Below are positions 38,406-41,505 of a stretch of DNA of 43,294 bases, in pieces. Under the pieces are notes generated by a model. The model was given only the letters and a program-made list of their open reading frames with translations, did not search any database and had not been told where the DNA came from. The stretch comes from a virus (taxonomy: Duplodnaviria; Heunggongvirae; Uroviricota; Caudoviricetes), in IMG/VR virus record IMGVR_UViG_2609460053_000008; one strand, written 5' to 3'. How positions within the stretch are numbered: the first letter of the stretch is position 1; every line of letters starts with the position of its first letter. Both the position numbers and the translations under genes were made by a program.

Positions 38406-39082
38406 GCAAATACACCGAACTGATCACGAACTACCACGCCACCAAACCTAAATTTCTTGCACATGTTGATCTGATGACCCGGCCGCTTATTGATGTTGCG
38501 GCTGCCACCAGAGGGCTGATTACTGCATTTGATATTGACTCTGCGGTTGGTGTGCAACTTGACATTCTTGGATTGTGGATCGGACGTAGCCGTGTTGTCA
38601 GCCAGCCTATCTCAGGTGTCTATTTCAGCTGGGATACCGACGGGCTTGGATATGATCAGGGTGTATGGCAGGGGCCATACGATCCTGATTCCGGATACAT
38701 GTACCTCAGCGATGAAACTTATCGTGTCATCCTTAAAGCGAAGATTGCGATTAATAACTGGGACGGACGGAATGATTCGCTTCCGGCAATTCTTGACGCG
38801 GCGACAGCAGGATCCGGACTGCGAATGCAGATAGTCGATAACCAGGACATGACGATATCGGTCTGGCTCTTTCCTGATACTGATATTTCAGATGTATCGC
38901 GTGAGTTAATTGCTGCAATTAAACAGGGATATCTCACAGTAAAAGCCGCCGGGGTTTGGGCGGGTGGCATTGAAACACCTTCGGTGGAAACTCCATCGGA
39001 AGGTTCAAAATTTTTTGGTTTTGATATGGATAACGAATTCATCAGTGGTTTTGATGTAGGGGCATGGGGAGTATTACTCTGA
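38402..39082 (+). CDS. Baseplate/tail protein I-like
   Basis: 226 aa between J-like and tail fibre genes. Confidence 0.5.
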   Translation: MSKYTELITNYHATKPKFLAHVDLMTRPLIDVAAATRGLITAFDIDSAVGVQLDILGLWIGRSRVVSQPISGVYFSWDTDGLGYDQGVWQGPYDPDSGYMYLSDETYRVILKAKIAINNWDGRNDSLPAILDAATAGSGLRMQIVDNQDMTISVWLFPDTDISDVSRELIAAIKQGYLTVKAAGVWAGGIETPSVETPSEGSKFFGFDMDNEFISGFDVGAWGVLL

Positions 39083-41505
39083 TGGCGAAAAATGACTTTA
39101 AAGCGTTTGCAACTGATCGGAATGCCAATGTTATGTCGCAGGAGGAATGGGAAGCGTTGCCTGCGCTTTTATCCGGATTTACAGCAGGGAAAGCATCCAG
39201 TGCGCAGGTGAACAAAGCCATTCGACAGGCCAGCTTTATTGCTGCAGCTCTGGCCCAGTTTGTAAGTGACAAAACGCAACGGGATGTGCTTGATAATGGT
39301 GATCTGCCCGGTTTTGTTGAATTGCTTGGATCGGGGTTTGCTGTTGAATACCTGAGTCGCAAGAATCCGTTTGGTGATATCAAATCGGACGGCACGGTAG
39401 AACGCGCTCTTGAAAATCTGGGGTTACAGGATGTAAAAGCTGGTTCATTGAACAATCTGTACACTAACCATTCCCGTAGTGTCTTAATGGAATTGCCGTT
39501 ATTATTCCCGGACTACGATACGGTGCTGGCTGCTCAGTCTGGTGCGGAATATATGTATCCACAGGGATTTGTGGTGACAGGAGAAAAAATCTATCTGAGT
39601 TATACCGTTGAGCCAAAGCAGACACGGAACGTTATAGTTCAGTACACAACATCCGGCGAATATGAGGGATATTATTATGTCGATAATGGAGGTCGTGGCG
39701 TTGTCAGCGAAGGCCTTGTGGTGACAACGGATTACGGTGGATTACGTTTGTTCATGTCAGGAGAAAATGGATTACTGAAACAGTTTTCGCTTGATGGGGC
39801 AATTTCTGGTTCAGTATTGCCGTTAATTGATGAACATGATGTCGGTGTTTACAACCAGTTCAGCTATCGTAAAAACCGCTGGGTGGTTGAACAGTCAGCG
39901 CCGGAAGTGGGAGGCCTGATCACCCGCACAGTATTTGCGGTGTATGATTTTCAGTTTCGTCGGACAGGGACATTCACATTACCGTTGCATGATTCCGGAT
40001 ATATCACGGAAAGCACAGACAGCTATGCAAGACGCTTCACAAAACGTCAGGGAATTGCTGTGGGAGACGATTATATTGCCTGTTCTTATGGTGGCTATTT
40101 TAATACCGGGGCATCAGCCGGATTTAACCAGTTTCAGGGGGTTAAGGTCTTTTCTCCGGATGGAGTAAAGCAGCAGGAATCCATTCTTCATCCCCAAAAA
40201 ATGATAGATGTGCTTACCAGGCAGGGTTTTACACCTTCGCGCATTGAGAACGAAGGAATTTGTATTTCTGACGACGGCGGCAGTATATATTCGCTTTATA
40301 TCTTTCTGGAGCGTGGGTTACCACAGGCTTATCAGAAAGGAATTGTTCTGATGAAAGAGTTCAGTACTGGCAGAGATGCTATTGATTTTCGTCAGGCAGC
40401 CTGGTTGTACACGGGGTTTGATGTGTCTCATGCCAGTATTGGAACATTTCCCCGTAGTGCCCAGGGGTTGGTAAACCCGGTGTTGGGGACGGTATTCACA
40501 TCCCTGTCTGAAATTCTGGCATATATGCGTTCTGTGAGTCAGAAATGGTTTTGTCTGCATACAACCACGACACCGATTAAAGATCTGAGTGGAAATGACA
40601 TTCCTGCTGACAATTATGTGTTCATCAAGAATGCTAATAACCAGACATTCTATATAACGCAGGAGTCAGCTGAAGGTGGAATAAAATATAAAGCTGTCAC
40701 TACAGACAGCGGAGAATATGGTTTTCAGCGACAAAGAGAGGCAATCTGGTCCAATGTTATCACCATCGCACAAAAGAGCGATGGTGAGGATCAGTTTAAT
40801 CGTATTATCGCTGCCTCGAAAAGTGGTTCAGGTAAAAATCAGGATAAAATACTGGTAGTTGACCAACAGGCATCAGAGGGGAATAACACGCTGGTAATTG
40901 GCGGTGGTTCATCTGTGTTCAGGTCAGCGACAGTGATTGATTTTGCAACGAATCAGGATGCAAATGCCACAGGAGGAGAAAAGAGATGGCGCATAGATTC
41001 ATCAGGAAATCTCCGCCCTTATACAGATAATACGTATTCGATCGGTTATGCCTCATGGCGACCCGCACAGGTTTATTCAGCTACGGGAAGTATCAGTACA
41101 TCAGACCGGACTCATAAACAGGACGAAACAATTCTGTCGGATGCAGAAAAAAGGGTTGCCAGAAAGCTGCTCGGGTATATCTGTCGGTTCCGTTTCAGGG
41201 ATGCAGTGTCCAGCAAAGGGAACGCAGCCAGATGGCATGTAGGAGTGATTGCTCAGGACGTACAGAAGGTCTTCTCTGAGGAAGGGCTGGACGCTTTTGA
41301 TTACGGTATTTTGTGTCGTGATGAATATCCGGCGGAATATGAAGTGGTTTACGGGACTCGTATGGAGCTTGGTCCTGACGGACTCCTTACAATGGAAGAA
41401 TACGATACCGGAGAGCGCAAGCTGGTCAGGGAGGCTGGTGAAATAATGTCTGTAAGGAATGATGAGCTGCATTATTTCATGCTGGCATCGCTGTCTGGCC
41501 AGTGA
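39082..41505 (+). CDS. Tail fibre protein with C-terminal intramolecular chaperone (peptidase S74-like) domain
   Basis: 807 aa; C-terminal motif [11 protein letters not shown]...[15 protein letters not shown] from 41101; start could be 39064. Confidence 0.85.
   Translation: [807 protein letters not shown]

Follow-up and report, generated by a model that had tools for sequence, protein, structure and literature searches.

The stretch of DNA analysed here (the window, 43,294 nucleotides; virus record IMGVR_UViG_2609460053_000008, Caudoviricetes) contains a contractile-tailed prophage of 41.6 kb that is inserted in the bidirectional ryeA/ryeB small RNA locus of E. coli. The gene under study lies near the right end of this prophage, at 39082-41505 on the plus strand, and had been described in an earlier reading made without any database searches (the sequence-only reading) as a tail fibre with a self-cleaving C-terminal chaperone domain and no separate fibre-assembly gene. 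Our analysis supports a tail fibre or tail spike which carries its own C-terminal S74 chaperone domain and is not accompanied by a gene for a trans-acting tail-fibre-assembly (Tfa) protein. Furthermore, comparisons with a sister prophage in E. coli strain AVS0790 and with a prophage of E. coli ST131 show that most of the gene belongs to an exchangeable cassette. The gene and the parts of its product are as follows.

39082-41505, plus strand: tail fibre/tail-spike gene; intact open reading frame, start codon supported by gene overlap and Shine-Dalgarno sequence, 807-residue product in NCBI; 813 residues if translation began at the in-frame ATG at 39064
39082-39354, plus strand: prophage-specific N-terminal part, putatively baseplate-anchoring; PHROG matches, identity to the sister prophage and the 683R1 group, baseplate-gene context
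39355-39425, plus strand: conserved 24-residue linker and likely recombination joint, just before the position of the sister's Pin crossover site
39454-40428, plus strand: predicted five-bladed β-propeller head ('platform'), residues ~131-455, with the polar residues E216, K327-R-Q329 and E395-N-E397
40444-40731, plus strand: small β-sheet-plus-one-helix domain, tower-like, residues ~461-556; AlphaFold2 model, alignment with the HHU-22 protein, span of the Foldseek matches
40732-41100, plus strand: stalk before the predicted cleavage site, residues ~557-679, with D655, R666 and T679; low model confidence, similarity to T5 pb1 and endoNF
41101-41502, plus strand: Peptidase_S74 intramolecular chaperone domain, 134 residues, first residue Ser680 (SDRTHK, with Lys685); Pfam, PDB matches, invariant Ser and Lys

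A single uninterrupted open reading frame (ORF) of 813 codons extends on the plus strand from 39064 to 41505. The ATG at 39082 overlaps the stop codon of the upstream DUF2612 gene (TGATG) and is preceded at a distance of about 10 nt by GGGGAG. Because of this overlap and the Shine-Dalgarno sequence, ATG 39082 is preferred and is the likely start codon, giving a protein of 807 amino acids up to the stop at 41505. Exactly this protein is present in NCBI on 77 contigs, and the 813-residue version is not on record there. The residue numbers used in the following are those of the 813-residue form, as in the output of the tools; the 807-residue numbering is obtained by subtracting six. The locus is 100% identical to that of E. 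coli FDAARGOS_1289, and at least 80% of the gene was found in 57 of 5426 complete E. coli genomes. The observation made at 39082-41505 is confirmed.

In RefSeq, the gene at this locus (L001 6019-8442, equivalent to 39082-41505 of the window) is given as a truncated pseudogene and a shortened coding sequence labelled 'tail fiber domain-containing'. The division of the gene by RefSeq/PGAP, which is considered below, is likewise seen in the ST131 prophage (L003 2625-5000; 'StfP', missing C-terminus), the ORFs being continuous in both prophages.

Chaperone domain and absence of an assembly gene

The Pfam family Peptidase_S74 (PF13884) matches residues 680-742 of 813 with an E value of 6.7e-10 and a score of 39.5 bits, the cut-off being 22 bits. 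Among proteins of known structure, the best sequence match is T5 pb1 (4uw8; E 1.1e-16, residues 627-770), and the C-terminus also matches phi29 gp12 (3gud; 1.9e-14) and K1F endoNF (3gw6; 1.2e-13). Codon 680, which encodes the serine of TSDRTHK, begins at 41101, and 134 residues remain from there to the end of the protein. Thus, the sequence-only reading was correct in assigning the C-terminal 134 residues from 41101 to an S74 chaperone, and the profile match suggested as a check was obtained above the cut-off. The signature motif it named is also present, with a spacing that was off by one residue: the protein has S-D-R-x-x-K-x-x-x-x-I and not S-D-R-x-x-K-x-x-x-I.

The segment S680-D-R-T-H-K685 aligns with S1264 (alanine in the 4uw8 mutant) and K1269 of T5 pb1 as well as with SDERHK, the first residues of the phi29 gp12 structure 3gud. 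Altogether, D655, R666, T679, S680 and K685 align with D1239, R1250, T1263, S1264 and K1269 of T5 pb1, all five being identical. The S-x4-K catalytic pair is therefore present at the domain boundary, and each of the 12 S74-bearing homologues that were aligned has the same Ser and Lys as Ser680 and Lys685. In T5 pb1, cleavage has been assigned to the Thr1263|Ser1264 bond, with Ser1264 activated by Lys1269, and Arg1250 of the neighbouring chain, located between Asp1239 and Thr1263, serves as a sensor of correct stalk folding (PMC4690869). As these five positions are identical in the alignment, the scissile bond is predicted to be Thr679|Ser680, so that 134 residues would be released; the Ser-Asp bond proposed previously is not the one indicated by the T5 pb1 analogy.

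Upstream of the predicted cut, similarity to the stalk ends of T5 pb1 and endoNF begins at residues 612-627, and a sub-threshold match to the end of the Pfam family End_tail_spike was observed. In a monomer model (described below) the predicted local distance difference test score (pLDDT) of the stalk is below 50, as expected of an obligate trimer. The stalk probably adopts a trimeric β-helix only in the trimer.

A Caudo_TAP (PF02413) gene directly downstream of the fibre gene, the arrangement known from λ Stf/Tfa, Mu S/U and P2 H/G, was not found in the window. Six ORFs were scanned for Tfa, four lying 3' of the gene and two on the opposite strand inside it, and none gave a Pfam match; tblastn searches of the whole 43-kb window with the two Tfa proteins of the sister prophage yielded only noise. 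As positive controls, these two proteins match Caudo_TAP at 1e-30 to 1e-33, the assembly gene being present twice in the sister prophage. Thus, the earlier statement that no tfa-like gene follows the fibre gene holds for the window. An NCBIfam scan, which covered the fibre and the DUF2612 protein as well as the fibre and Tfa proteins of the sister prophage, produced no matches and is uninformative.

The propeller head

Residues ~122-679 are not covered by any Pfam family, and a sequence search of the PDB identified neither a solved structure for the head nor a direct phmmer match to 5efv. An AlphaFold2 model of the monomer was calculated for residues 122-813 from 15 sequences (mean pLDDT 70.5; predicted template modelling score 0.57). 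Residues ~131-451 are modelled confidently (pLDDT 85-95) as 20 β-strands that make up five four-stranded blades. The following part (~461-556; pLDDT about 70-84) contains one helix and five or six strands and may represent a 'tower', whereas the stalk after residue ~556 is unmodelled and leads to the chaperone. As modelled, the protein is spike-like, with a globular propeller head on a stalk, and not a thin fibre.

When the model was compared with the PDB by Foldseek, the receptor-binding proteins (RBPs) of NF5, 80α, φ11 and P68 ranked first (E 1e-10 to 5e-13), the alignments to φ11 and 80α covering about 500 columns. In a library of viral models, the top structural match is a tail fibre of a Staphylococcus myovirus. 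At the sequence level, BLASTP aligned the RBP of the Staphylococcus siphovirus HHU-22 up to residue ~532 of the E. coli protein, with 30% identity over about 450 residues (E 1e-56). The HHU-22 gene occupies the position of φ11 Gp45, between the Tal/SGNH genes and BppU, and the stem of its product matches φ11 Gp45 and 80α gp61 (E 1.6e-6). The head is thus homologous to the Staphylococcus phage RBPs beyond a shared fold. The comparison of the central region with known receptor-binding domains that the sequence-only reading had suggested thus gives matches by both fold and sequence, and its proposal that this region may determine the host range is supported. For φ11 Gp45, binding of N-acetylglucosamine (GlcNAc) on wall teichoic acid via a crevice modelled in the propeller has been described (PMC4901313).

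An exhaustive search with the propeller-plus-tower part over 1.84 billion representatives returned 286 clusters at E ≤ 1e-3. Among 62 sampled representatives, S74 is present in 17; K327, Q329, E395 and E397 are invariant and E216 is nearly so (at least 90%). It is conceivable, if rather doubtful, that the propeller head defines an undescribed family common to Gram-positive teichoic-acid RBPs and enterobacterial tailspikes, in which the invariant Lys, Gln and two Glu, together with the nearly invariant third Glu, form a common catalytic or sugar/phosphate-binding centre. In that case, the same mechanism as on wall teichoic acid would serve the E. coli protein to recognise, or to cleave, a motif of the GlcNAc type or one with phosphodiester links in O-antigen, enterobacterial common antigen or capsule. 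What is new in a more modest sense is that E. coli phages have clear sequence relatives of an RBP head which has so far been structurally characterised only in phages of Gram-positive hosts. No description of a five-bladed-propeller E. coli tailspike was found in the literature; one Kayfunavirus paper deals with true K1 endosialidases. Homologous tailspikes of lytic Escherichia and Salmonella phages (H20, H21, H24, H25, H27, H31) carry the label 'endo-N-acetylneuraminidase'.

The cassette, its flanks and the prophage

Upstream of the tail-spike gene lie baseplate J and DUF2612 genes, as identified by Pfam. Two PHROG families of tail-fibre N-termini, 11303 and 1396, match the N-terminus of the fibre. 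The identity of this part amounts to 93% with the N-terminal part of a 223-residue fibre of the sister prophage and to 96.7% with the corresponding part of the 'side tail fiber' proteins in the vB_EcoM-683R1 group. The sister prophage (L002 in AVS0790) occupies the same ryeA/ryeB site, and its DUF2612 gene is followed by the order fibre-tfa-tfa'-fibreC'-pinE, that is, the 223-residue fibre, a tfa gene, an inverted tfa' with an alternative fibre end, and pinE. Since it has 20-bp inverted crossover sites (pix) at 4621-4640 and 6429-6448 of L002 and an intact pinE, this cassette is, as judged from its layout, a switch of the Mu G-segment/e14 type.

Homology between the window and the sister prophage ends at 39425, at about residue 120 of the fibre, and returns at 41834 within the last 20 codons of pinE. 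Consequently, 39426-41833 appears to have taken the place of the variable fibre ends, the two tfa genes and about 90% of pin, and the absence of tfa would be explained by the removal of these genes when the module was swapped in. An inverted repeat of the crossover-site type was not found in the window, and a search of the window for a hidden tfa, invertase or invertible segment revealed solely the 20-codon pin relic. With the variable segments and the switch lost, the prophage would be fixed on a single specificity and no longer able to switch between two.

The ST131 prophage (L003), which lies beside zinT, shares 39355-42015 with the window at 98.9%, including the 328-bp AT-rich flank and the pin relic. 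This prophage is unrelated, with other baseplate genes and an StfP-type fibre N-terminus. Its fused ORF is intact and encodes 791 amino acids, and the 791-residue form is found on about 1000 contigs. From the overlap of the homology tracts shared with the sister and ST131 prophages, 39355-39425 and 41834-42015 emerge as the likely recombination joints. Taken at the level of these alignments, the gene is a chimera of the prophage's own putatively baseplate-anchoring fibre N-terminus (residues 1-~120) and a mobile cassette, 39355-42015, that circulates among unrelated prophages including that of ST131. More distant homologues (29-77% identity) share the head, and all but three of those aligned also share S74. 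The head-plus-chaperone module was found behind at least five other N-terminal adaptors, namely T7 tail fibre N-terminal, P22 head-binding, TSP1/Gp66 N-terminal, tail-collar and Mtd_N.

The following features lie between the gene and the right end of the prophage.

41515-41543, plus strand: stem-loop directly 3' of the stop codon, probably an imperfect intrinsic terminator; 11-bp stem, -19.3 kcal/mol, z -4.2
41506-41833, no strand assigned: AT-rich 3' flank travelling with the cassette; 98.9% in ST131 prophage L003, absent from sister L002, GC 39%
41835-41897, plus strand: relic of a pinE-type DNA invertase, last 20 codons (AIIYDVGVSTLYKKFPVGDK) and stop; tblastn with sister PinE residues 165-184, 100% identity
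42202-42221, no strand assigned: attR core (ACAGGAATCGTGTTCGGTCT); 19/20 copy of the attL core at 578-597 in ryeA/ryeB (SraC/SdsR)

The hairpin reported earlier after the fibre gene was recovered at 41515-41543, though with a weak T-tail. The distance from the stop codon to the attR core is 696 bp, and the GC content of 41506-42202 is 38.6% versus 48.7% for the window. The description of this region as about 700 bp of AT-rich non-coding DNA is thus accurate in length and composition and inaccurate in 'non-coding', as the pin relic lies inside; the downstream tail is accordingly in part relic DNA and not a simple spacer. No match covering 41506-41833 was obtained in a phage database. Many E. 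coli genomes annotate pinE over the relic stretch, and the remainder from the relic to attR is common to the window and the sister prophage.

A hydrophobic ORF of 59 codons follows right after the terminator stem (41545-41724, plus strand), and its exact peptide is listed as 'hypothetical protein' on 410 contigs. This ORF and three other small downstream ORFs were treated as non-genes because they lack family matches and the 59-codon ORF has no ribosome-binding site; the latter is probably not a gene. The cassette flank also holds an orphan terminator-like hairpin on the minus strand (41695-41676; TGCCCGGATCATCACGGGCA followed by T6). In an Rfam scan of 41480-42370 at low threshold, no RNA gene was accepted. 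An AgvB-like (anti-GcvB small RNA) match at 41670-41723 on the minus strand reached 22.9 bits, compared with a gathering threshold of 56 bits (E 0.03), and consists mostly of the terminator hairpin, with a C/A-rich seed partly kept; a CssrB match is just the hairpin after the pin stop; and a partial SraC match merely marks attR.

The borders of the prophage are defined by full matches of SraC/RyeA and SdsR/RyeB at 463-607 at the left end and a weak partial SraC_RyeA match at 42128-42231 at the right end, where part of the locus is duplicated; beyond attR come the host genes pphA, yebW and yebV. The prophage combines a Rac-like early region with a contractile-tail (myovirus-type) structural module. 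Regulatory RNAs scoring above the Rfam gathering thresholds are RalA (with ralR), DicF, sok (with hokD) and isrK with C4 and the a1b1 target, at window positions 2169-2347, 7809-7860, 14348-14519 and 16691-16892. The otherwise co-directional baseplate block is interrupted on the opposite strand by a gene for a 121-residue protein (35513-35878, minus strand), which is hypothetical in RefSeq and could be a moron.

Interpretation and comparison with known systems

Overall, we consider it probable (roughly 80%) that the gene encodes the receptor-binding tail spike of the prophage, that this spike is assembled with the help of S74 and independently of Tfa, and that its module replaced an invertible fibre system. 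Several observations weigh against this view. RefSeq/PGAP splits the locus into a pseudogene fragment and a coding sequence of 672 codons. Two early genes are frameshifted (29393-29709 and 30565-30988 of L004, an identical prophage), so that the prophage may no longer yield particles, though its structural genes look intact. The AlphaFold2 model is a monomer derived from just 15 sequences, in which the stalk and the inter-domain geometry are unreliable; the GlcNAc site of φ11 was itself modelled and not observed (PMC4901313); and the hairpin at 41515-41543 has a poor U-tail, its T-run being weak (CATGCATTTT).

The first two of these observations could mean that the locus is a dead remnant, in which a truncated fibre pseudogene stands next to an unrelated fragment and S74 is irrelevant to any living phage. 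PGAP indeed marks 39082-39430 as 'gp53-like' and 'incomplete, missing C-terminus', with a separate coding sequence starting at Met142, the neighbouring pin gene is down to 20 codons, and in some other carriers (H7, H8) an IS3-family insertion lies inside the tail-spike gene. However, the frame is unbroken for 807 codons across the supposed break, and the joint is located in a linker that is conserved in both parents. The identical full-length protein and the sister chimera of 791 residues recur on many contigs (see above), and lytic phages have the head-plus-S74 module in frame after many kinds of adaptor, all of which makes a dead remnant improbable. As the frame is continuous, the split seems to be a by-product of homology-based annotation of a mosaic gene, and the pseudogene reading of RefSeq was rejected for an ORF that is continuous and recurs intact. 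Less probable still is that S74 alone is insufficient and that folding needs a trans-acting factor encoded nearby, for instance by the 59-codon ORF at 41545-41724. This ORF lies inside the cassette flank that is 98.9% shared with the ST131 prophage, its peptide is called on hundreds of contigs, and with S74 in only 17 of the 62 family representatives the head must have other routes of assembly. Yet its ATG abuts the terminator stem without a ribosome-binding site, it has no Pfam match, and it is no more conserved than the surrounding non-coding DNA. In addition, endoNF, T5 pb1 and phi29 gp12 fold without a partner (PMC4690869), and the gene for the related E. coli tailspike P0007 is directly followed by holin genes.

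Whether the head is a lectin-like binder or an enzyme, i.e. a polysaccharide depolymerase or endosialidase of a capsule- or O-antigen-degrading tailspike, is a separate question, and the enzyme appears unlikely to us. In its favour, related genes of lytic phages (37% identity) are labelled 'endo-N-acetylneuraminidase', the order of anchor, propeller, stalk and S74 mirrors K1F endoNF, and the invariant Glu395 and Glu397 with the nearly invariant Glu216 (at least 90% across the family) could form a catalytic centre. On the other hand, neither the endosialidase propeller (PF12217) nor BNR/Asp-box repeats were matched even at E values up to 5, while the control endosialidase P0018 does match PF12217, PF12218 and BNR and resembles the protein studied here only in the stalk end and S74. 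In fold as well as in sequence, the nearest proteins are RBPs with a known binding role (φ11 Gp45, PMC4901313), hydrolases scoring well below them. Since the head is devoid of a sialidase signature, the labels would most simply stem from transfer via the shared S74, and from the sequence, sialidase activity of the tail spike is neither expected nor indicated.

A receptor-binding, self-chaperoned tail spike would work as follows. The N-terminal ~90 residues may anchor the trimer to the baseplate beside the baseplate-J and DUF2612 wedge proteins, and the conserved linker would connect this anchor with the exchangeable module of propeller head, tower-like domain, stalk and 134-residue S74 domain. 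After translation, three C-terminal chaperone domains would associate and nucleate folding of the trimeric stalk. Only a correctly formed stalk would position Arg666 of the neighbouring chain with Asp655 and Thr679, whereupon Ser680, activated by Lys685, would cut the Thr679|Ser680 bond and the chaperone would depart, leaving a mature trimer of ~673-residue chains. Because maturation would be self-chaperoned and completed by cleavage, no Tfa gene would be needed. A surface glycan is the probable ligand of the propeller, which carries the conserved E/K-R-Q/E-x-E cluster and probably also determines the host range; the tip exposed by cleavage may contribute as well. The cassette 39355-42015 presumably entered by recombination in the conserved linker and at the 3' end of pin, displacing the invertible system of two fibres, two tfa genes and pin.

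If so, the locus offers a clean natural example of a change in prophage specificity, in which a switchable system with two fibres, two chaperones and an invertase gave way to a self-chaperoning spike in one step. The results should also help to correct the public annotation, in which an intact gene is split by RefSeq and related genes are called endosialidases apparently only via S74.

Self-cleaving S74 fibres as a class are already textbook knowledge, and public databases already contain the exact protein; what is added is the documented cassette replacement of invertible fibres and a propeller head of the Gram-positive-phage type on an uncharacterised member. Within this class, T5 pb1 (PDB 4UW8/4UW7; PMC4690869) has a C-terminal chaperone of ~133 residues that is cut before a Ser paired with a Lys five positions on, as predicted here, and likewise lacks a tfa gene. 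In contrast to the propeller head upstream of a short stalk in the present protein, T5 pb1 ends in a unique 'bullet' receptor-binding tip on a long fibre, and its virion is that of a siphovirus, whereas the prophage studied here has a contractile tail. K1F endoNF (3GW6, chaperone; 3GVJ, catalytic part) shows the same order of a particle-binding N-terminus, a β-propeller 'cap', a stalk and S74, with a match of the chaperone and the stalk end by sequence (E 1.2e-13). Its propeller, however, has six blades, is of the sialidase type (PF12217, Asp-boxes) and includes a nested barrel, as opposed to the five-bladed model without such a Pfam match obtained here.

In the head, the protein resembles the RBPs of the φ11 Gp45 type (5EFV; 80α gp61, 6V8I; P68 fibre, 6IAB; Brochothrix NF5, 9M7X), in which a five-bladed propeller 'platform' is followed by a β 'tower', as may be the case here. 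The α-helical (triple) coiled-coil stem by which those proteins dock on BppU-type baseplates is absent here; instead, a Mu/P2-style fibre N-terminus, as in enterobacterial myoviruses, follows baseplate J and DUF2612 genes and not BppU. The φ11 Gp45-type RBPs end at the tower, which consists of two β-sheet domains, without S74, whereas a stalk and a chaperone are added in the E. coli protein. The ligand of these RBPs is wall teichoic acid decorated with GlcNAc, a polymer absent from E. coli. With regard to the system that appears to have been replaced, the sister prophage has exactly the layout of the Mu G segment with Gin, the P1 C segment with Cin and the e14 P segment with Pin: a constant fibre N-terminus, two C-termini each with a Tfa, inverted crossover sites and pinE. 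Of the parts of such a Din-type invertase cassette, the window retains the constant N-terminus and the last 20 pin codons; the variable segments, the two tfa genes, the crossover inverted repeat and about 90% of pin have been lost.

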